Source: Nannocystis bainbridge (GTDB taxonomy: Bacteria; Myxococcota_A; Polyangia; Nannocystales; Nannocystaceae). Taken from it: a stretch of 64,000 nucleotides of DNA. The notes beneath the pieces were generated by a model that did no database searches, was not told the DNA's origin, and saw nothing but the letters and a program-made list of their open reading frames with translations. The stretch covers positions 1,184,001-1,248,000 of the forward strand of contig NZ_JAQNDL010000002.1 in NCBI RefSeq assembly GCF_028368995.1, given 5' to 3'. Shown piece after piece: positions 1-60,748 of the stretch; the first letter of the stretch is position 1, and each line of letters begins with the position of its first letter. Made by a program: the position numbers and the translations under genes.

Positions 1-673
1 CGGCGGCGACGACGGCCTCGGCGACGGCGGCGACCCGCGGGACCAGCAGCTCGAAGTTGCGGGCCGCGCCGCCTTTGGGCTCGACCATCGAGAACTTGAG
101 GGTGACGCCGGCGAACCCGGCGACGAGGTCGACGAGGCCGCGCAGGTGGGCGACGTTCTGGCGGGTGACGACGCAGTTGACGGTGAGGTCGAGGTCGCGG
201 CCGGCGAGGTTGCGCAGGGCGGCCACGGCCTGATCGAAGGCGTCGCTGCGGACCAGGCGGTTGTGCACCGGGGCGCTGCCGCCGTGCAGCGAGAGGTAGA
301 CGTAGCGCAGGCGGTGGGCGAGGAGCTTGTCGGTGAGCTCGGGGTAGGCGAGCGCGCGGCCGTTGGTGACGAGGCCGAGGTCGAGGCCGAGGTCGGCGAT
401 CCGCGCGGCCCAGCGGAGCAGCTCGGGCCGGATCGTCGGCTCGCCGCCGGACAGGACGACCATGCTGTGTCCGAGCTCGGCGGCGCGGAGGATCTTGCGC
501 TCGACCTCCTCGGCGTCGCCGTCGATCGGGCGCACATCGAGCGTGTGACAAAAGGTGCAGTGCTCGTTGCAGCCGTAGCCGACCTTGATCAGCGCCTTGT
601 AGTCGCCGGGCTGGAGCCTCGGGGGCCGCGGGGGCCGCGGGCCGGCCCATGCGGGGTGGGAGCGATCGTCCAT
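1..673 (-). CDS. Radical SAM protein (HxsC-like), C-terminus runs off the left edge; absent from the ORF track
   Basis: Manual translation from ATG at 673: MDDRSHP...KALIKVGYGCNEHCTFCHTL (CxxxCxxC)...VVLSGGEPTIRP...LVTNGRALAY...VYLSLHGGSAPVHNRLV. Frame is open to the window edge. Confidence 0.9.
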   Translation of the reverse strand, partial: MDDRSHPAWAGPRPPRPPRLQPGDYKALIKVGYGCNEHCTFCHTLDVRPIDGDAEEVERKILRAAELGHSMVVLSGGEPTIRPELLRWAARIADLGLDLGLVTNGRALAYPELTDKLLAHRLRYVYLSLHGGSAPVHNRLVRSDAFDQAVAALRNLAGRDLDLTVNCVVTRQNVAHLRGLVDLVAGFAGVTLKFSMVEPKGGAARNFELLVPRVAAVAEAVVAA

Positions 674-713
674 GCGCGGCGCCGATGCTATCGCGTCCTC
701 GCGGCGCTCGGCA

Positions 714-836
714 GCGAGGGCTCGCGTAAAAGTCGGGGGCCGAGGTCGCAGCGGCGATGGGGGCGTGAGGGCGGCGAGGGCTCACGCACCACCTCGGGGC
801 CGAGGGTCGCGGCGGTGGTGGGGGCGTGAGGGCGGC
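714..836. repeat. Imperfect ~60-bp tandem duplication in the divergent intergenic region
   Basis: GGGGCCGAGG(G)TCGC..GGCG..GGGGGCGTGAGGGCGGC occurs at about 736-775 and 796-836. Confidence 0.6.
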
Positions 837-904
837 CGGCGCCCGGGTCGCCTTGACGCAGGCTGTGGGGGGCGGGTACGTTGGCTCCGATCAGGAACGA
901 CTGC

Positions 905-1393
905 ATGAAGTCTTCGCCGCGTGTCGCTCGTCGCAAGGTCCTCGCCGTCCTCGGAGTCGCCGCTGCCGGCGTGTCGACCGCGGTGTGCACGCTCCGCCCG
1001 CGCACGACGGCCCCGTCGTCCGCGGCGCCGCTGGCCGGTCTGGTCGGGCCGCTCGGCGAGTGGCGCGTCGAGCAGGTGCTGCCGCTGGTCGCAGGCGCGG
1101 TGCCGGTGCTGATGCGCACCCCCGCGGGCCAGAAGTTCCAGGTCGATCTGCTGCGCGCCGAGGACGAAGGGCCCCGCGCGGTCGCCCAGGCGGGCGGGCT
1201 GGCGCTGTACCTCGCCAACGGCGGCGCGGGCGACCGGCCGTCGACCGCGGTCGAGGAGCAGGGCGCCCGGGCGCTGGCGCAGCGGCTGGCGCAGCTGGCG
1301 AGCGAGCGCGGGGCGCCGGCGATCCCCGGGCTGCTGACGCTGTCCGAGCGGCTGGCGTCGCACCGCCAGGCCGTGCTGACGCCGTGGGCCTGA
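905..1393 (+). CDS. Hypothetical exported protein with a twin-arginine-like signal
   Basis: ATG 905 preceded by AGGA; MKSSPRVARRKVLAVLGVAAAGVSTAVC gives RR plus a hydrophobic stretch. Confidence 0.7.
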   Translation: MKSSPRVARRKVLAVLGVAAAGVSTAVCTLRPRTTAPSSAAPLAGLVGPLGEWRVEQVLPLVAGAVPVLMRTPAGQKFQVDLLRAEDEGPRAVAQAGGLALYLANGGAGDRPSTAVEEQGARALAQRLAQLASERGAPAIPGLLTLSERLASHRQAVLTPWA

Positions 1394-1408
1394 GCGGCGC
1401 CGCGGCGA

Positions 1409-1582
1409 GGCCCTGTCTGGAGGGACAGGGCGTTCGGGACATGTCGTATGGGGCAGGTGCGAAAGGTCCTGTCCGAACGGACAGGGCGCTGCGAACATGG
1501 CGCGAGGGACAGAGCGCCTGTTTGAAAGGACAGGCGTGGTGCGTGGTGCGTGAGGCAGGAGCGCCTGTCCGAAGGGACAGGT
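1409..1582. repeat. 14-bp-phased TGTCC-N4-GGACA-type array
   Basis: Cores (CCTG/CAGG/CATG/CAGA) at 1412, 1426, 1440, 1454, 1468, 1482, 1496, 1510; further pairs at 1517/1531 and 1564/1578. Confidence 0.85.
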
Positions 1583-2426
1583 GGATGTGAGCCTGGCGGG
1601 CGTCGAGCCGGCGAGCGCGGACGGCCAGAGCGCTCTCGCGGCGCTCGTGCGCGCGGGCGGCGGGACGCTGACGCTGGCGGGGGCCGAGGTGCCGGTGCTC
1701 GCGGCCTGGGCTGCGGCGGCGCGGGCGGCCGGGTTCGCGCGCGTGTGGGTCGCGGCAGGGCCGGCGGGGCTGACGGCGGAGGCGCTCGCGGGGCTCGCGG
1801 GCGCGGGGCTGGGCGGGCTGCGGCTGCGACTGTACGCGGCCGAGGCGGCGGCGCACGACTACCACGCCGGTCACGAGGGATCGTTCCGGGCCACGCTGGG
1901 GACGGCCCGGGCGGCCCGGGCGGCGCGGCTGCCGGTGACGGTGACGACGCCGCTGACGCGCTCCAATTCGCGGGTGATGGCGGCGCTGCCGGGGCTGCTC
2001 GCGGACATCGGCGCGCTCGGGTGGCAGGTAGCGACGGTGGCGGCGGGCGGCTCGGCGAACCACGGGGCGGTGGCGCCGCGGCTGGCGGTCGCGCTGCCCT
2101 ACGCGCTGCAGGCGATGGTGGCGGCGGAGCGCGTCGGTCTGTTGGCCGCGATCGCCGGGGCGCCGCTGTGCTTGCTCGGGCCGCTGCGCGATCGCTCGGT
2201 GGCGACGCCGGTGCGGGCGTTCGCCGACGCGTGCAGCGGTTGTGCGCTGCGGCCGGGCTGTCCGGGGCTCGACGCCGCGTACCTGGGCCGCTTCGGCGCG
2301 GGCGAGCTGGTGCCGGTGACGCAGGGCGGGGGGCCGGTGGCGAGCGGCGCGCGGTCGATGAAACTCCGGGACATGTTCTCGGGGCCATGGCTCGAGCTGT
2401 CGGAGGGCCCGTGCTGGCCGATCTGA
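1581..2426 (+). CDS. Degenerate radical SAM-like protein: no CxxxCxxC, retains the C-terminal Cys cluster
   Basis: Core resembles its neighbours (AHDYHAGHEGSFRATL, VTTPLTRSN, PLCLL) and the C-terminus is CSGCALRPGCPGLDAAYLGRFGAGEL. An in-frame TGA at 1551 prevents N-terminal extension. Confidence 0.75.
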   Translation: MDVSLAGVEPASADGQSALAALVRAGGGTLTLAGAEVPVLAAWAAAARAAGFARVWVAAGPAGLTAEALAGLAGAGLGGLRLRLYAAEAAAHDYHAGHEGSFRATLGTARAARAARLPVTVTTPLTRSNSRVMAALPGLLADIGALGWQVATVAAGGSANHGAVAPRLAVALPYALQAMVAAERVGLLAAIAGAPLCLLGPLRDRSVATPVRAFADACSGCALRPGCPGLDAAYLGRFGAGELVPVTQGGGPVASGARSMKLRDMFSGPWLELSEGPCWPI

Positions 2427-3577
2427 CGCTGCCGGATTTCGGCTCGGACACGGCGCGCGGGCTGTTCTCGATGGCGCTGCGGCGGGCGCTGACGGAGCTC
2501 GTGCGGCTGCCCGCGGGGCCGGGGCCGAACGGGGCGGCGTGGGGGCGGTTTGCGCCCGAGCTGCGGCGGATCGCCGGGCGAGCGCCGGGGGCTCTTGCGA
2601 GCGCGGTGCGACGGCCGACGATCGGGACGCTGATCCGCTGCCTGCGCGGGCGGCCCGACCCGGCGCTGCAGGGCGAGCTGCTGGCGACGCTGGCGCTCGA
2701 GCTGGCGGTGGCGGGTGTGCTCGAGGACAGGTGCGTCGTGCCGCAGCCGCCGGCCGAGGTGCTGTGCCTGGCCGCGCGCTGCGCCCTGCGGCCGCCGCCG
2801 GGCCCGCTGACGATCGGGCCGGGCGGGTGGCAGGCGGGCGGGGTCGGCGGGGCGATCGCAGAGGACTTCGGGACATGTGCTTCGGAGCATGTCGTGAAGG
2901 ACATGTACGAGAGCGTCGCGGGGCCGGTCGCGCTGGCGCTGCGGCGCGACAACAACCCGCTGGCGCAGCTCGAGGCGCACCCCGACAAGTCGGGCAGTGG
3001 GCTCGATCTCGGGGGGCAGCCGGTCGCGGCCTGGGTGGCGGGGCTGCGCGCGGGGCTCGAGCAAATCGCGGCGCACCTGCCGGGGCTGCGGGCAGAGCTC
3101 GACGTCGGGCTGTCGCTGATCGTGCCGGTCGGTCACGACCGAGAACGGCACCTGTCGGCGTCGTACCAGGAGGCGATCGGGACGGTCTACCTGAGCCTGC
3201 ACCCGAGCGCGCTCACCCTGGCGGAGGCGCTGATCCACGAGTTCTCGCACAACAAGCTCCACGCGCTGCTCGAGCAGGGGCCGCTGCTCGAGAACGCCTG
3301 GTCGCCGCTGTACGCCTCGCCGGTGCGGCCCGACCCGCGGCCGCTGCACGGGGTGCTGCTGGCGGCCCACGCGTTCCTGCCGGTGGCGGCGATGCTCGAG
3401 TCGATGCTGTCCTCCGGGACAGGCGAGGTCGAGGGCCGGCTGCAGCAGGTGGCGCGCGGCAACCACGAGGCGGTCGAGACGCTGCGGCTGCACGCGCGGC
3501 CGACGGCCCTGGGGGCGCCGCTGCTGGCCGAGATGACGCGGCTCGACGATCGCTTCCGGCGCTGGTGGGAGGGCTGA
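2411..3577 (+). CDS. HExxH-motif peptide-modification protein (aKG-HExxH beta-hydroxylase-like)
   Basis: LAEALIHEFSHNKLH, YASPVRPDPRPLHGVLLAAHAF and HLSASYQEAIGTVYL motifs. Start taken as GTG 2411 with GGAGG upstream; the track's longer 1550 start overlaps the previous gene. Confidence 0.88.
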   Translation: MLADLTLPDFGSDTARGLFSMALRRALTELVRLPAGPGPNGAAWGRFAPELRRIAGRAPGALASAVRRPTIGTLIRCLRGRPDPALQGELLATLALELAVAGVLEDRCVVPQPPAEVLCLAARCALRPPPGPLTIGPGGWQAGGVGGAIAEDFGTCASEHVVKDMYESVAGPVALALRRDNNPLAQLEAHPDKSGSGLDLGGQPVAAWVAGLRAGLEQIAAHLPGLRAELDVGLSLIVPVGHDRERHLSASYQEAIGTVYLSLHPSALTLAEALIHEFSHNKLHALLEQGPLLENAWSPLYASPVRPDPRPLHGVLLAAHAFLPVAAMLESMLSSGTGEVEGRLQQVARGNHEAVETLRLHARPTALGAPLLAEMTRLDDRFRRWWEG

Positions 3578-3578
3578 G

Positions 3579-4508
3579 GTGCCGGGGCTGCTCGACATGA
3601 TCCTCGGCTACGACTGCAACCTGTGGTGCGACTACTGCACGATCGGTCCGGAGCTGCGCGGGCGGGCGATGTCGACGGCGCACGCGCTGGCGTCGCTGCG
3701 GCAGGGGCGGGCGCAGGGGCTCGACGCGCTGTCGCTCACGGGCGGCGAGCCGACGATCCGCCCCGACCTGCTGACGATCGTGCGCGCCGGTCGGACGCTC
3801 GGGTTCGTCGACATCAAGGTGCAGTCGAACGGGCTGATGTACGCGCACGGCGACAACCTGGCGCGGCTGCTCGCGGCCGGGGCGACGCGGCTGCATGTGT
3901 CGGTGCACACCCACCGGGCCGACCGCTACGAGCAGCTGGTCCGAAGGACAGGTACGTACGCGGCCATGGTCGGCGGGCTGCAGCGGGCGGTCGAGAGCGG
4001 GGCGGCGCTGGTCGTCGACCTGATCGTCAAGCGCGATACGATGGCCGACCTGCCGGCGGCGATCGAGTGGCTGGGCGAGCTCGGGGTGCGCGCGGTCGAC
4101 CTCTGGTACGTGTCGCTGACCGACGCCAACGCGGCCCACCCCGAGTCGCTGCCGCGCATGACCGAGGCGCTGCCGTTCGTGAAGGAGGCGCTGGCGCGCG
4201 GGCGCGAGCAGGCGATGACGCTGCGCTCGCTGCACGTGCCGCGCTGTCTGTTGGGTGAGGATCATCCGCACGCGTGGGACCCCGGCGCCGACGAGGTGGT
4301 GGTGGTGACGCCGGAGGCCACGTTCGCGCTGAAGGACAGCCGCCTGGCCGGGCGGGTCAAGGTGCCGGCGTGCGCGGGCTGTCCTTTCGAGCAGGTCTGT
4401 CCGGGCGTGCGGCCGGACTACCTGGCGCGCTTCGGCGACGGCGAGATCGCGGCGGCGCGCGGACAAGCGGCCTCGCGCGGACCGACGCACCTGCCGATCG
4501 CGCCGTGA
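3579..4508 (+). CDS. Radical SAM protein (HxsC-like)
   Basis: CNLWCDYC, LTGGEPTIRP, QSNG, VSVH; C-terminal CAGCPFEQVCPGVRPDYLARFGDGE. Starts 1 nt after the HExxH stop. Confidence 0.92.
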   Translation: MPGLLDMILGYDCNLWCDYCTIGPELRGRAMSTAHALASLRQGRAQGLDALSLTGGEPTIRPDLLTIVRAGRTLGFVDIKVQSNGLMYAHGDNLARLLAAGATRLHVSVHTHRADRYEQLVRRTGTYAAMVGGLQRAVESGAALVVDLIVKRDTMADLPAAIEWLGELGVRAVDLWYVSLTDANAAHPESLPRMTEALPFVKEALARGREQAMTLRSLHVPRCLLGEDHPHAWDPGADEVVVVTPEATFALKDSRLAGRVKVPACAGCPFEQVCPGVRPDYLARFGDGEIAAARGQAASRGPTHLPIAP

Positions 4509-55788: not shown

Positions 55789-56000
55789 CACAGTCGCCTG
55801 GAAGTTCTCCGAGGGTTGGCGGGGGTGACCGCTGGTGCTCCGAGCCATACGGCGCCGGAGGCGACCCCTGGAGAACGTCGGGTTCGCTGTATCAGGCGGT
55901 CGGGTGACCCGCGAAATTCACGGCCGGCCCGGCGCGGGCAATGGTCGGGCAGCCCGGGGGTGCACGTCAACCCGGGCAGCGTCGACGGAAAGCGTCCTGG

Positions 56001-56130
56001 GGGACATCTGATTTCGAATCACGCGCGACGCTGTGCTGGAGGCATGTCGCGAAGACTCATGATGTCCTTCGGGACATGTCGTTAAAAAGTTTCTTCGGAC
56101 ATGTCCTCAAGGACATTTATGTTCATGTCG
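56001..56130. repeat. Degenerate 14-bp array cluster
   Basis: TGTCCTTCGGGACA (cores 56061/56075), TGTCCTCAAGGACA (56100/56114) and scattered CATG cores. Confidence 0.75.
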
Positions 56131-57004
56131 CGCGGGGCGGGCGAGTGATGACGAAGCGCGGGCAGGTGTCGGCGTCGTCCCTCAGCCAGCGCTGCGGGCC
56201 AGCGGCGGACTCGCGCAGGCGGTCGTCGGCGGCGCGCCACAGCTGATCGAGGTTGGCGGGCAACTGGCACGTCGCGGCGAACTGCGCCGGATCGGCGAGG
56301 TCGCGCCAGATCTGCTGGCAGTAGGCCAGCAGGTCGTTCTCGTAGAAGCGGAGCAGCGGGGCCGAGACGAGCGGCCCGCGGTGCCAGCGACGCAGGCCGT
56401 CGCCGAGGGCGCGGCCAAGCTCGAGCAGGAGCGGGCGCGGGACCCGGTGCGTGAGCAGCAGGTGCTTGCTCAGGTCGTGCTGGACGCCGAAGAAGTGGTA
56501 GTCGCGGCCGGCCCGCACGCGCCGCGGCTCGGGCAGGCGCAGGCGAGCGGCCGCGGCCAGGGCGGTGTAGTAGGTGCCGGCGCCGAGAGCGATCGGGACC
56601 TCGCCCCGCAGGTTGCCTTCGAGCCATGTCCGTTTGTTCATGGCCGAAGAGACAGCCTGATAGTAGCGCGGGCGCGGGCCGAGGTCGGGCACCCGCGCGA
56701 TCAGGCTGGCCGGGGCCGGGGCGCCGTCGACGAAGCCGCGCGCGTCCCAGGTGAAGCCGAGCCGCTGCAGCCAGGCGCGCACGGCCGGGTGACCGCCGAG
56801 GACGTCGACGCGCCCGACCACGGCGGCGTGGGCCCGGGTGTCGTGGGCGGGGAAGCGGAGCAGCAGGCCGTGGTCGTCACGCGCGAGCGCGGGCGCGACG
56901 CCGAAGCGGCGGCGGTAGGCGGCGATGAACGGGCGCAGCAAAGCGGCCTCGGCGTCGGGACCGGCCGGCTGGGGCAGCGGCGCGGTGGCGGCGTCGAGGA
57001 GCAT
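56123..57004 (-). CDS. Hypothetical protein downstream of the HxS-linked radical SAM gene
   Basis: ATG 57004 is 26 nt after the radical SAM stop; GC3-rich; contains DYHFFGVQHDLSKH and FYENDL. Confidence 0.7.
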   Translation of the reverse strand: MLLDAATAPLPQPAGPDAEAALLRPFIAAYRRRFGVAPALARDDHGLLLRFPAHDTRAHAAVVGRVDVLGGHPAVRAWLQRLGFTWDARGFVDGAPAPASLIARVPDLGPRPRYYQAVSSAMNKRTWLEGNLRGEVPIALGAGTYYTALAAAARLRLPEPRRVRAGRDYHFFGVQHDLSKHLLLTHRVPRPLLLELGRALGDGLRRWHRGPLVSAPLLRFYENDLLAYCQQIWRDLADPAQFAATCQLPANLDQLWRAADDRLRESAAGPQRWLRDDADTCPRFVITRPPRAT

Positions 57005-57030
57005 GCGCGGCGCTGGGCGGCGGGCGAGCG

Positions 57031-58083
57031 TCAGGGCACCGGGACGAATTCGTCCCAGCCGTAGCGGCGCAGGTAGTTGCCCCACACGCCCTCGCACACG
57101 GGCTCGTAGCGGCAAGCGGCGCACTCGGGCCGCTTGTGACGGGCGCTGTCGTCGAGGTCGGCGCGGCGCACGGCGACGAGCCCGCCGTCGGGCCCGGAGC
57201 GCCGCTCGGCCAGGCGATCGGCAGGGATGAGGTCGGTGTGCACGGCCACCGGCGGCTCGAAGTGGACGTAGTCCTCGACGTAGCCGCGGTTGTGATCGGG
57301 CAGCCGCGTGGTGGTGCACAGCGGGATGTCGACGAAGAACGCCTGGACCTGGCGCTCGCGCGCGGAGGCCTGCTGCAGGAACCCTTCGGCGGCCGCGGCG
57401 ATCTCGGTGTAGGTCGGGAACAGCTGGTCGAAGAAGGTGTTGGCGCGGCCGTTCGCCTGCATGACGTTGAACACGACCTGGTCGACCCCGCGCTCGCGCA
57501 GGAACACGTAGATCTCGTGGAGGTGCGGCAGGTTGCGCTTGGTGACGACGGTGCTGGTGTGCAGCGCGACGCCGAGCCGCTTGTAGCGGGCGATCGTGGC
57601 GATCCCGCCGACCGTCTGCTCGAAGCTGCCCGGGGTGCGGGTGAGGGCGTCGTGCAGCTTGGCGGTGTGGCCGTGGATGCTGACGTAGACCTTGTTGAGC
57701 CCGGCGGACAGCAAGAGGCGCGCGTAGCGGTCATAGCTGAGCGCGCGACCATTGGTCATCATGCTGATCTGGCGCGCACCTGCCTCTTTGGCCATCTTCA
57801 CCCAGACGGGCAGCCGCTGGTTGGTGGTCGGCTCGCCGGAGGTGAAGCACACCTCCTCGAAGGCGTCGTGCTGACCGAGGATCCAGCGCACGGTCTCGTC
57901 GGTGGTGGCGGAGTTGACGACGTAGCGGCCGTCGCGGTCCTCCTCCATGCAAAAGATGCAATTGTTGTTGCACACCGCGCCGGTCAGGATATGCACCCGC
58001 GGGGCCTTGCCGGCGATCCGCGCCTCGATCGCACCGCCAGCGGACGGGCGTTCACCAGGAGCCGTGGGAGCCGTGCGATCCAT
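57031..58083 (-). CDS. Radical SAM maturase (HxsC-like) next to the His-Xaa-Ser peptide
   Basis: CNNNCIFC, FTSGEPT, MTNGRALSY, VSIHGH; C-terminal CAACRYEPVCEGVWGNYLRRYGWDEF. Nearest in-frame ATGs are 58083 and 58101; a GTG near 57996 is an alternative. Confidence 0.92.
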   Translation of the reverse strand: MDRTAPTAPGERPSAGGAIEARIAGKAPRVHILTGAVCNNNCIFCMEEDRDGRYVVNSATTDETVRWILGQHDAFEEVCFTSGEPTTNQRLPVWVKMAKEAGARQISMMTNGRALSYDRYARLLLSAGLNKVYVSIHGHTAKLHDALTRTPGSFEQTVGGIATIARYKRLGVALHTSTVVTKRNLPHLHEIYVFLRERGVDQVVFNVMQANGRANTFFDQLFPTYTEIAAAAEGFLQQASARERQVQAFFVDIPLCTTTRLPDHNRGYVEDYVHFEPPVAVHTDLIPADRLAERRSGPDGGLVAVRRADLDDSARHKRPECAACRYEPVCEGVWGNYLRRYGWDEFVPVP

Positions 58084-58315
58084 GCGAGCCGTGCGATCCA
58101 TGCGAGCCGTGCGAACCGTGCGAGCCGTGCGAACCGTGCGACGCGTGACCGGGGTCGCCGGGGGCGAAGGTGGCCGCGGCGACGAGGTCGCCGCTCGGCA
58201 CGCCCGTCTCGGCGTACTCCAGCGCCTTGTCCGAGATCTCACGGTGTTCGGGTCCAAGCACGGCGCTGGCCTTCTTGCGAAAGGAGACGAGCTCGTCAGG
58301 ATCAGAGGCGGCCAT
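58052..58315 (-). CDS. His-Xaa-Ser repeat peptide (HxsA-like RiPP precursor), 87 aa
   Basis: MAASDPDELVSFRKK...ATFAPGDPG followed by HAS, nine HGS and W-stop (counted from nucleotides 58058-58147). Variation among the HGS repeats is synonymous in this frame. Confidence 0.88.
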   Translation of the reverse strand: MAASDPDELVSFRKKASAVLGPEHREISDKALEYAETGVPSGDLVAAATFAPGDPGHASHGSHGSHGSHGSHGSHGSHGSHGSHGSW

Positions 58316-58483
58316 GGCTGCACCATAGCCGAACCTCCGCGCGGCTCGCAGCACGAACCAGTGAGAACGCGCGGGGCCGGTGCGAAGCGGCGGTAGCACC
58401 GACCGAACGGCTCCAGAAGCGGCTTTGCCGACAACTTGACACCGCACGGGCCCCGCCCGTAGCGTCCCAGAAAGGCTCTACGC

Positions 58484-59404
58484 ATGCAGATTCGGGTACT
58501 TTCTCTCGCGCTCCTGGTCGCCGCGGGCTCGACGTCCGGCTGCAGCGACGACTTCGAGCTGCCCAACAGCTCCGGCGTACCGACGGCGCCCGACGGCGCG
58601 ACGACCACGACGACGGGCGAGACGCCGACGACCTCGACGCAGGGGACGACCGCCGTGGACACGACCACCACGGGCGATCCGACCGGCGAGCCGACCAGCT
58701 CGACCACCGACCCGACGGCGGGCGGCATGTGCAACATCTACGACCAGGACTGCTCCGGCGACGAGAAGTGCACCGCGTACGCGAGCCCCAACACGTTCAT
58801 CCCCGAGGGCATCAAGTGCGTGCCGGTGCCCGACAACCCGAAGGCCGCCAATGAGCCGTGCAACGTCGGTCCCGAGGGCCTCGGCGACGACAACTGCGAG
58901 CTCGGCACGGTCTGCCTCGACCTCGACTTCAACGGCTCGGGCTTCTGCCTGCCGTACTGCACCGGCGACTCGCAGAACCCGGTCTGCGAGGGCAGCGACA
59001 CCACCTGCGTTAAGCTGTTCTTCGGCTACGACTTCGGCAACTGCTTCAAGCAGTGCGACCCGCTGCTGCAGGACTGCGCCGAGGGCGAGGGCTGCTACAT
59101 GGACGCGATCAAGGTCGGCAACACGGGCTTCGTGTGCCTGCCGGTCGTGCAGGGCGGGGCCGAAGCGACCTTCCAGGACACGTGCATCGGCTGGTCGTCG
59201 TGCGCGCCCGGGTTCGCCTGTGTGTTCGACGCGCTGGTGCCCGAGTGCTCGTTCTCATACTGCTGCTCGCCGTGGTGCGACGTGTCCGAGGGCGACGACG
59301 CATGTCAGGCGCTCGACGAGAAGATGTCGTGCATCGCCTGGTACAGCGAGGGACAGGCGCCGCCGGGGTTCGAGAACGTCGGGGTCTGCGGGATCCCCGA
59401 GTAG
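58484..59404 (+). CDS. Cys-rich lipoprotein with Thr-rich linker (paralog of 22427-23401)
   Basis: TSGC lipobox, CNIYDQDC and CDPLLQDC modules, ends APPGFENVGVCGIPE. Confidence 0.88.
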   Translation: MQIRVLSLALLVAAGSTSGCSDDFELPNSSGVPTAPDGATTTTTGETPTTSTQGTTAVDTTTTGDPTGEPTSSTTDPTAGGMCNIYDQDCSGDEKCTAYASPNTFIPEGIKCVPVPDNPKAANEPCNVGPEGLGDDNCELGTVCLDLDFNGSGFCLPYCTGDSQNPVCEGSDTTCVKLFFGYDFGNCFKQCDPLLQDCAEGEGCYMDAIKVGNTGFVCLPVVQGGAEATFQDTCIGWSSCAPGFACVFDALVPECSFSYCCSPWCDVSEGDDACQALDEKMSCIAWYSEGQAPPGFENVGVCGIPE

Positions 59405-59625
59405 GGGGTCCCCGGCGTTTTTGGCCGGGGCCCGCGCAGTTTACGCTGTCAAATCAGCGTTTGGCCCTGGAAAAGGCGAGAACGCGGCGGAATTCGGGGT
59501 TTTCGCGCGATCGATGGCGAAGTGGCGTGAGTCGGTAAAGCTGCCGTAAACTCACCGCCCGGGCCGTCCCGGCGGTGTATCAAAAGCCGCCGGGGGCCAC
59601 TGCGGCCCCCACGGAGGAGACTCAG

Positions 59626-60345
59626 ATGCCAATGTCTCGGACAACTCGCCTCACCCTGCCGATGCTGCTCGCGCTGTTCGCGACGCAGCTTGCCGCCTGC
59701 GCGCCGACCATGTTCGACGACGCGACGGCGCTGGCCGTCGTAGGGGACCCGCCGCCGCTTCCGGCGCCGCCGCCGCCGCCGCCACCACCTCCCGAGCCGG
59801 AGCCGGAGCCGCCGAAGCGCGTGGTGGTCGAGGACAACAAGATCTCGATCAACGAGAAGATCCAGTTCGACCTCGACAAGGCGACGATCCGCCCCGAGTC
59901 GGACGGCCTGATGGCCGAGATCATCTCGGTCATCAAGGAGAACCCGCACATCAAGAAGATCGCCATCGAGGGCCACACCTCGAGCGAGGGCACCGACAAG
60001 CACAACCTCAAGCTGTCGGACGCGCGCGCCAAGGCGGTCATGGACTACTTCGTGAAGAAGGGCGCCCTGCCCAAGGAGATGTTCACGGCCAAGGGCTACG
60101 GCGAGACCCGCCTCATCGCCGACGAGTCGTCGGAAGAGGGCAAGGAGAAGAACCGTCGCGTCGAGTTCAACATCATCGAGCAGGACGTGACGAAGAAGAA
60201 GGTCGAGATCGACCCGAAGACCGGCCAGAAGAAGATCGTCGAGGAGTCGACCTCGACCGTCGAGAACCCGTCGCCCGAGACGCCGGCCGAGGGTGGTGCC
60301 GCCGCGCCTGCTCCCGCCGCCGACCCGGCCAAGGCCACCAAGTAA
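59626..60345 (+). CDS. OmpA/MotB C-terminal domain lipoprotein
   Basis: LAAC lipobox, poly-Pro, IQFDLDKATI, IEGHT, LSDARAKAV, NRRVEF. Confidence 0.93.
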   Translation: MPMSRTTRLTLPMLLALFATQLAACAPTMFDDATALAVVGDPPPLPAPPPPPPPPPEPEPEPPKRVVVEDNKISINEKIQFDLDKATIRPESDGLMAEIISVIKENPHIKKIAIEGHTSSEGTDKHNLKLSDARAKAVMDYFVKKGALPKEMFTAKGYGETRLIADESSEEGKEKNRRVEFNIIEQDVTKKKVEIDPKTGQKKIVEESTSTVENPSPETPAEGGAAAPAPAADPAKATK

Positions 60346-60361: not shown

Positions 60362-60748
60362 ATGCGCATTTCCACGATCCTCTGCTCCCTGCTGGTCGCC
60401 GCGGTCACGACCGCCTGCGCCGGCGTCAAGCGCGACGCGGAGACCTACCGCGCCGACACCCGCTCGGTGCTCGAGACCAAGAACAGCGCCGTGAAGGCCT
60501 GCTACGACCAGGCCCTGGTCGACGACCAGAGCGTCAGCGGCGAGGTCCTGGTCCGCTTCAAGGTCGAGAAGAAGACCGGGCGGCTCTACGACGTCGCCGT
60601 CGACCCGGCCGGCACCCAGGCGCCCGAGGCGCTGCAGTCGTGCATCGTCCGCGCCGTCGACGGCCTGGTCCTCGACCCGGTCGACCGCCGCGAGGGCATC
60701 GCCTCGTACAAGTACACGTTCAAGGCCAACCCGCCGGTCCAGCTCTGA
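60362..60748 (+). CDS. AgmX/PglI C-terminal (TonB-C-like) domain lipoprotein
   Basis: TTAC lipobox, VKACYDQAL...SGEVLVRFKV...CIV...YTF. GGGAG precedes the ATG. Confidence 0.75.
   Translation: MRISTILCSLLVAAVTTACAGVKRDAETYRADTRSVLETKNSAVKACYDQALVDDQSVSGEVLVRFKVEKKTGRLYDVAVDPAGTQAPEALQSCIVRAVDGLVLDPVDRREGIASYKYTFKANPPVQL

Follow-up and report, generated by a model that had tools for sequence, protein, structure and literature searches.

Does a short gene for a His-Xaa-Ser repeat peptide, overlapped by the gene of one radical S-adenosylmethionine (SAM) enzyme, make up a complete peptide maturation system, or is it one part of a larger system encoded elsewhere? The question is raised by a locus of Nannocystis bainbridge that lies on the minus strand of a 64,000-nucleotide stretch of contig NZ_JAQNDL010000002.1, and this whole stretch is called the window here. 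An earlier note on the window had described the locus as looking like a variant His-Xaa-Ser system without an adjacent HxsB or HxsD-like gene. Our analysis indicates, with a probability of about 0.78, that it is the hxsA4-hxsC4 half of a split type-4 Hxs maturation system of the Nannocystaceae, whose partner genes are found in a distant locus of the same genome.

Identification of the gene pair

The Hxs family was reportedly defined by comparative genomics in 2011. Both proteins of the locus match curated NCBIfam models over the full model length: HxsA4 scored 82.6 bits on NF038313 (cut-off 55, model positions 2-93 of 93) and HxsC4 scored 609.2 bits on NF038332, the model labelled 'rSAM_rare_HxsC4' (cut-off 500). 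As both scores are above the curated cut-offs, the pair had already been catalogued, and by these profile matches the locus belongs to the HxsA4/HxsC4/HxsD-like family and does not represent a new type of system. A member of the third family, HxsD-like (NF038315), is present at a distant locus of the same genome. No difference from the catalogued family was seen at the protein level; what differs is that this genome and the closest Nannocystis carry the system in two separate loci. The scores on the models of the canonical proteins were far below the cut-offs: 9.6 bits for HxsA4 on TIGR03979 (cut-off 121.65), a model for HxsA proteins of about 190-215 aa with an exported or peptidoglycan-binding architecture, and 94.2 bits for HxsC4 on TIGR03977 (cut-off 267.9). 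In Pfam only the generic Radical_SAM domain (PF04055, 67.4 bits) was found in HxsC4, and the only match of HxsA4 was a sub-threshold hit to Collagen, which is an artefact of the repeat. The genome holds a single HxsC4 copy above the cut-off.

The main elements that the earlier note had read from the letters were all recovered, namely a 56-residue leader followed by ten H-x-S triplets and a terminal Trp, an overlapping enzyme with a CxxxCxxC motif and a C-terminal CxxC-x5-C motif, and the pairing of a His-Xaa-Ser precursor with an Hxs-type radical SAM enzyme (Table 1).

The leader (MAASDPDELVSFRKKASAVLGPEHREISDKALEYAETGVPSGDLVAAATFAPGDPG, translated from the minus-strand open reading frame, ORF) has an acidic N-terminus and, as read from the sequence, no hydrophobic signal sequence. 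A leader block, (L)P.F.RK..LL...QREIS, is kept across genera in the precursor listing. The DNA that codes for the HGS run was reported by Tandem Repeats Finder with a score of 117, a period of 9, 9.2 copies and 83% matches. A six-frame scan of the 11.05-Mb genome found only three runs of at least four HxS triplets, so the repeat pattern of hxsA4 is not a product of chance; the hxsA4 core is one of the three, and the second belongs to the HxsA-like ORF of a canonical Hxs locus on contig C2.

HxsC4 is directly preceded by an ORF of the (HxS)n type in 26 of 30 short-flank loci and in 60 of 80 species loci, the latter being the best 80 of the 471 relatives found in species genomes. The peptide is conserved: of the 60 species loci that have it, 56 keep it as a separate ORF that terminates with Trp and a stop codon. 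The number of HxS copies ranges from 7 to 21 in these 60 loci and from 9 to 20 in 26 uninterrupted precursors, a count that leaves out a 27th precursor (L028) interrupted by a masked stretch. The run opens with HCS in 44 of the 60 loci and with HAS or HGS in eight each. For the Ser of the repeats, some genera use TCN codons and other genera AGY codons, a sign of selection at the protein level and not just of repeat slippage. Judged from these comparisons, the peptide gene is real, conserved and under selection.

The HGS run is interrupted in a few assemblies, by a frame change in L143 and by masked or N stretches in L028 and L078, and in L148 an HGR unit precedes the terminal Trp. Probably these cases arise because the repeat is hard to assemble.

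The peptide ORF could also be an artefact: an assembly error in the repeat could have created it by putting a His-rich N-terminal extension of the enzyme into the wrong frame. The enzyme frame is indeed open through the whole peptide gene (a 568-aa open frame), one species carries a real fusion of the two proteins, and the frame change of L143 falls inside the repeat. With this G + C content, however, open frames of such length are to be expected, the peptide by itself is recognised as a protein by the HxsA4 model, and the Trp-stop ending recurs in nearly all of the species loci. Moreover, five further Nannocystis assemblies (L070-L073 and L086) have the same ten repeats, the same Trp-stop and the same frame offset. 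This removes the worry about a frameshift for this genome, which the earlier note had raised, and makes the artefact extremely improbable.

The only in-frame ATG codons ahead of the conserved N-terminal IE.RI motif of HxsC4 are those at 58083 and 58101, and both are formed by the CAT-GGA codons of two HGS units read in the other frame. The overlap of the two genes is therefore 32 or 50 nt. From the alignment of orthologues and the comparison with the natural fusion, the start codon of hxsC4 would be placed within the repeat, an arrangement that suggests translational coupling, and hxsC4 is probably coupled to hxsA4 in this way. The fusion is found in genome G027 (L023, the same as L087), where HxsA4 and HxsC4 are joined in frame into a precursor-enzyme protein of 473 aa; compared with the locus of a sister species (L014), the TAG after the Trp and the following TAA are both sense codons.

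Seven Cys residues are invariant in the alignment of 20 HxsC4 orthologues: C38, C42, C45, C256, C321, C324 and C330. C256 together with C321, C324 and C330 gives four invariant Cys beyond the CxxxCxxC motif, enough for one auxiliary cluster, so that HxsC4 likely carries one auxiliary Fe-S cluster of the twitch-like kind. The AlphaFold2 model of HxsC4 had a mean predicted local distance difference test score (pLDDT) of 78.1 and a predicted template modelling score (pTM) of 0.82. BlsE was the top solved relative both by sequence profile (E 1.4e-13) and in the fold search (7vob, E 1.3e-11), in which viperin, DesII, MoaA, SkfB and anSME were also returned, MoaA and SkfB at lower ranks than BlsE, with identities of 14-20% and template modelling scores (TM-scores) of 0.42-0.56. 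BlsE, MoaA and SkfB have one C-terminal auxiliary cluster, comparable to the four additional Cys of HxsC4. As the substrates of BlsE and MoaA are small molecules, the likeness is one of fold type and not of reaction.

Probable partner genes in a distant locus

The genes hxsD, hxsD-like and hxsB are located at C3:1603574-1605818, on the same contig as the window and 362 kb from hxsA4-hxsC4. Their products scored 55.3 bits on the HxsD model TIGR03976 (cut-off 50), 73.7 bits on the HxsD-like model NF038315 (cut-off 41) and 573.8 bits on the HxsB model TIGR03978 (cut-off 370), so that the HxsB and HxsD of a canonical Hxs system are both encoded, but at that distance. No HxsA or HxsC gene lies beside these three genes, and the six-frame scan of the genome found no other HxS-repeat ORF fit to serve as a substrate for this locus. 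The HxsB encoded there is 66.5-72.7% identical to the HxsB proteins adjoining HxsA4 and HxsC4 in seven long loci of other genera, whereas the canonical HxsB of contig C2 shares only 34-38% identity with these proteins. By these identities, the distant HxsB is orthologous to the HxsB linked to the type-4 pair in sister genera.

The same genome carries a separate canonical HxsD-HxsB-HxsC-HxsA locus (L062, G000:C2:1612785-1616384). Its HxsA-like protein (positions 763-1416 of that locus) has 217 aa, a signal peptide, HRS and HSS repeats and a Gly/Ser-rich linker, and it scored 28 bits on TIGR03979, for which the cut-off is 121.65.

In the proposed pathway, HxsA4 would be a ribosomally made precursor in which the leader of about 56 residues carries a conserved recognition block and the C-terminal (HGS)n-W core serves as substrate. 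HxsC4 would most likely work with the SPASM-type radical SAM enzyme HxsB and the two small HxsD-type proteins, hxsA4-hxsC4 and the distant hxsD/hxsD-like/hxsB locus acting together in trans. The modified residues would be His and Ser in every repeat, by analogy with the HXS system of E. coli. A complex prediction that paired HxsC4, represented by its orthologue alignment, with the distant HxsD gave scores of 0.01 and 0.03, the mark being 0.32, and carries no weight either way.

Distribution and gene order

In species genomes, 471 stretches confirmed by tblastn encode relatives of HxsC4, and the best 80 all bear Myxococcota-type labels. The enzyme is 95-97% identical in Nannocystis pusilla, N. 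exedens, N. sp. RBIL2, N. punicea and N. radixulma and 65-68% identical in Enhygromyxa salina. The distribution was also analysed in a set of 101 genomes, consisting of the 100 closest genomes and the genome itself (G000), with orthologue thresholds of E<=1e-60 for HxsC4 and E<=1e-100 for HxsB. HxsC4 was found in 43 of the 101 genomes, and in 38 of them it exceeded the family cut-off. It is present in 38 of the 60 genomes of the same family, in at least seven genera, and its identity tracks relatedness. Despite the label 'rare', the HxsC4 family is therefore widespread and conserved in the Nannocystaceae. An HxsB orthologue was detected in 58 of the 101 genomes, among them all 43 that have HxsC4.

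With neighbouring genes counted within 2.5 kb, HxsB, HxsA4 and HxsC4 stand together in 39 of the 80 species loci, HxsA4 and HxsC4 without HxsB in 21, HxsB and HxsC4 in four, and HxsC4 by itself in 16. The long loci of sister genera show the contiguous order hxsD - hxsD-like - hxsB - hxsA4 - hxsC4, and HxsD orthologues were found in eight and HxsD-like proteins in six of the 12 long loci. The absence of adjacent HxsB and HxsD genes, as stated in the earlier note, thus holds for the surroundings of the pair but not for the genome, and the idea of a variant architecture that lacks them is not supported, since dedicated NCBIfam models exist and the five genes are contiguous in sister genera.

The distance between hxsB and hxsC4 is 343-397 kb, on one contig, in G000 and in the genomes G001, G005 and G007 (HxsB 95-100% identical), and in G003 and G010 the two genes are on different contigs. 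The gene hxsB is adjacent to the pair in the more distant genomes of the same genus, G002 and G009 (75-77% identity), as well as in several other genera. The split of the system is found solely in the closest Nannocystis relatives. The simplest reading of these gene orders is an ancestral five-gene operon that would have been repeatedly rearranged in these large genomes, one of the rearrangements being a recent split within the crown group of Nannocystis.

Other arrangements were seen among the relatives. In L015, L019, L032, L035 (genus g15), L077, L085, L089 and L107, hxsB is followed by hxsC4 with no hxsA4 between them; the gaps are 63-138 nt in g15 and much larger in L107, and in two of these hxsB-hxsC4 genomes no HxS-repeat ORF was present within 8 kb on either side. 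All six genomes of genus g16 (G025, G034, G042, G048, G054 and G059) have an HxsB orthologue, 65-67% identical, and none of the six gave an HxsC4 match at E<=1e-60. The g16 genomes may use a different second enzyme.

Evidence for and against joint action of the two loci

The pair could, instead, be a self-sufficient two-gene system for a ribosomally synthesised peptide with post-translational modifications (RiPP), in which HxsC4 modifies HxsA4 by itself and the distant HxsB and HxsD proteins serve another purpose. Such a reading would accord with the overlap of hxsA4 and hxsC4, with their natural fusion in G027, with the 21 species loci that hold only these two genes, and with the fact that the crown group of Nannocystis has kept the pair together since its separation from HxsB. 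We consider it improbable, because an orthologous HxsB is retained in every one of the HxsC4-positive genomes, HxsB, HxsA4 and HxsC4 are contiguous in about half of the species loci, and the genome encodes no other HxS precursor for the distant hxsD/hxsD-like/hxsB locus. Moreover, in G088 hxsA4 adjoins hxsB and not hxsC4.

The split type-4 system builds on observed family membership, conservation, co-occurrence, HxsB orthology and rearrangement, and several points weigh against it. In the 21 species loci with only HxsA4 and HxsC4, HxsB is missing from the surrounding 2.5 kb, and HxsC4 is missing from 15 of the 58 HxsB-positive genomes, including all six of g16, so the components are not strictly bound to one another. 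HxsC4 is only 25% identical to the canonical HxsC of its own genome (over 199 residues) and falls short of the HxsC model, which makes the transfer of the E. coli mechanism a long extrapolation. The names HxsA4 and HxsC4 occur in no paper of the literature library that was searched, and no experimental work on the pair was found there. In metagenome libraries labelled as RNA, contigs from relatives, 88-97% alike, cover parts of hxsC4 and hxsA4, and one contig of 353 nt from an RNA-Seq root-metagenome library, which may include DNA, spans the junction of the two genes (57971-58295); as these contigs derive from relatives, they do not support transcription of this locus. Finally, a scan of 55900-58700, a span that takes in the region upstream of hxsA4, gave 0 sites for sigma-70-like promoters (0.0 on average in shuffled controls); the scan does not cover myxobacterial promoter types.

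The match share of the sequencing runs was at most 0.20 of the sampled words. In the region scanned for promoters a single terminator-like site was found (56101-56116, plus strand), no more than in shuffled controls. A full-text search for the repeat string HGSHGS gave one match, an irrelevant geology paper, and a term search in a survey of myxobacterial biosynthetic gene clusters (PMC12224551) gave no match.

Comparison with cyclophane-forming enzymes

Chemistry of the triceptide type would close each H-G-S unit to a three-residue cyclophane and give a poly-cyclophane. The bond expected in H-G-S joins His C2 to Ser C-beta, with a loss of 2 Da per repeat. Such chemistry is compatible with either gene architecture, and H-G-S formally matches the aromatic-X2-X3 motif. 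As described in PMC11499958, HaaB, YhhB and HtkB link His C2 to the C-beta of residue 3 on HAA, HNR and HTK, and their systems resemble type-4 Hxs in having a radical SAM enzyme, a leader-bearing precursor and repeated three-residue motifs that begin with His. These enzymes are, however, SPASM maturases of other families than HxsC4. On the models checked (YhhB NF041707, AmcB NF041718 and GrrM/OscB TIGR04261), an HxsC4 orthologue and HxsB scored 38-56 bits, with cut-offs of 310-445. Within this range, HxsB is weakly similar to all three SPASM maturases (46-56 bits), and the HxsC4 orthologue reached 38.1 bits on AmcB, the cut-off of which is 425. None of the three is among the best 25 of the 56 families listed for HxsC4, and among solved structures HxsC4 comes closest to BlsE, viperin, DesII and MoaA. 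The sole measured Hxs modification is +8 Da (+C/-4H) and not -2 Da (PMC13128918), and cross-links are not known from any Hxs peptide. Cyclophane formation is therefore rather unlikely in our view.

Comparison with the E. coli HXS system

The antiphage system HxsABCD (HXS) of E. coli was described by Li et al. (Nat Commun 2026, PMC13128918). HxsB and HxsC are needed for the processing of HxsA and for defence, and HxsC binds HxsD. The +8 Da change of HxsA maps to SHRSS, in which the His and the flanking Ser are essential. HxsA is processed and exported, and the role proposed for its five basic HxS repeats is to hold the incoming phage DNA. The gene order is D-B-C-A in 99.6% of the systems, and 99.7% of them occur in Pseudomonadota.

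The type-4 system shares with E. coli HXS a His-Xaa-Ser substrate, a SPASM-type HxsB, a radical SAM HxsC and a small HxsD. The substrates differ in that HxsA4 has 87 aa with ten near-identical HxS units (HAS and nine HGS) and a terminal Trp, whereas E. coli HxsA combines its five basic repeats with a peptidoglycan-binding domain. In addition, the type-4 system has an extra HxsD-like gene, its order is D-Dlike-B-A-C or split instead of the canonical D-B-C-A, and its lineage is Myxococcota instead of Pseudomonadota.

A role of matured HxsA4 as an antiphage effector that blocks the entry of phage DNA in the periplasm, as in E. coli, is possible but not favoured. HXS is a demonstrated defence system (PMC13128918), and the HxsB and HxsD of the distant locus are homologous to those of the E. 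coli type and pass the same NCBIfam models. HxsA4, however, has neither a signal peptide nor a peptidoglycan-binding domain, carries neutral Gly where the canonical repeats are basic, and stays far below the cut-off of the canonical HxsA model; the HxsA-like protein of the canonical locus in the same genome, by contrast, has both a signal peptide and HRS/HSS repeats. The presence of the enzyme in most genomes of the family, across at least seven genera and with an identity that follows relatedness, is unlike a patchy defence island, and the neighbouring genes are housekeeping or envelope genes. PADLOC, with a library of 2023 that predates the publication of HXS, gave weak generic viperin matches to radical SAM domains. 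The strong confinement of HXS to Pseudomonadota also speaks against a shared function, and we regard the defence role as unlikely.

Genes around the locus

The features of the window are listed in Table 1. On one side of the pair, downstream of hxsC4, lies an ORF of 293 aa. It was considered as a third component and rejected, because it matches no family and was found by tblastn in only six of 30 loci, those of the genome itself and of the five closest genomes of the same genus. The other flank of hxsA4-hxsC4 is occupied by a divergent gene for a Cys-rich lipoprotein. Further along are genes for an OmpA-like lipoprotein and an AgmX/PglI protein, which fit with the assignment to Myxococcota.

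A second radical SAM module lies at the opposite end of the window. In G057, homologues of the module stand directly beside the HxsD of a contiguous Hxs4 cluster, and groups of ORFs related to the module occur in five of the 12 long loci. The module may form a RiPP cluster of its own or contribute to the Hxs4 pathway as an accessory.

Table 1. Features of the hxsA4-hxsC4 locus and of other parts of the window (positions are those of the window).
Feature	Position	Strand	Basis or remark
hxsA4, 87-aa His-Xaa-Ser repeat precursor	58052..58315	minus	translation and NF038313 score; stop codon 58052-58054
hxsA4 leader region, residues 1-56	58148..58315	minus	read from sequence
HxsA4 core, HAS + 9 x HGS + W (31 residues), then stop	58055..58147	minus	translation
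9-bp tandem DNA repeat beneath the HGS run	58059..58141		Tandem Repeats Finder
hxsC4, radical SAM enzyme, 350 aa from ATG 58083	57031..58083	minus	NF038332; start inferred
CNNNCIFC (CxxxCxxC, radical SAM [4Fe-4S] motif), C38/C42/C45	57949..57972	minus	invariant in 20/20 orthologues
CAACRYEPVC (CxxC-x5-C), C321/C324/C330	57094..57123	minus	invariant in 20/20 orthologues
ORF of 293 aa, downstream of hxsC4	56123..57004	minus	no NCBIfam hit
OmpA-like peptidoglycan-binding lipoprotein	59575-60345	plus
AgmX/PglI C-terminal domain protein	60362-60748	plus	domain typical of myxobacterial gliding-motility proteins
ORF of 972 aa	61066-63984	minus	looks by eye like error-prone DNA polymerase III alpha (DnaE2-type)
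Second radical SAM module	1..4508		53 kb from hxsA4-hxsC4, same window
Module: radical SAM gene	<=673	minus
Module: radical-SAM-like ORF	1581-2426	plus
Module: alpha-ketoglutarate (aKG)-HExxH peptide beta-hydroxylase	ends 3577	plus	TIGR04267, 98.6 bits
Module: radical SAM gene	3579-4508	plus

Significance of the proposed split type-4 system

Beyond the database labels, the analysis adds the split operon, the wide conservation in the Nannocystaceae and the natural fusion of precursor and enzyme. A further-reaching view would be that type-4 Hxs is a vertically inherited non-defence pathway of the Nannocystaceae that acts in trans over about 360 kb and represents a new RiPP class unlike the triceptides; we offer it tentatively, since the odds are against it. 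If it were true, 7-21 identical HGS units and a Trp would become a repetitively modified His-rich peptide, for instance one with a metal-binding or signalling role, and further modifications may come from the conserved module that encodes the aKG-HExxH hydroxylase together with additional radical SAM enzymes.

In the first functional study of an Hxs system, published in 2026, an unexplained modification of +8 Da was found on a single HxS motif (PMC13128918). HxsA4 is a cleaner substrate than E. coli HxsA, being short and leader-bearing with 7-21 identical HGS units, and because the repeats are all identical, a regular mass ladder could give a direct reading of the Hxs chemistry. As the Nannocystis pair makes up one half of an operon that has been split, expression work should include the distant hxsD, hxsD-like and hxsB genes. 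The locus offers a good experimental way into the chemistry of the Hxs family.

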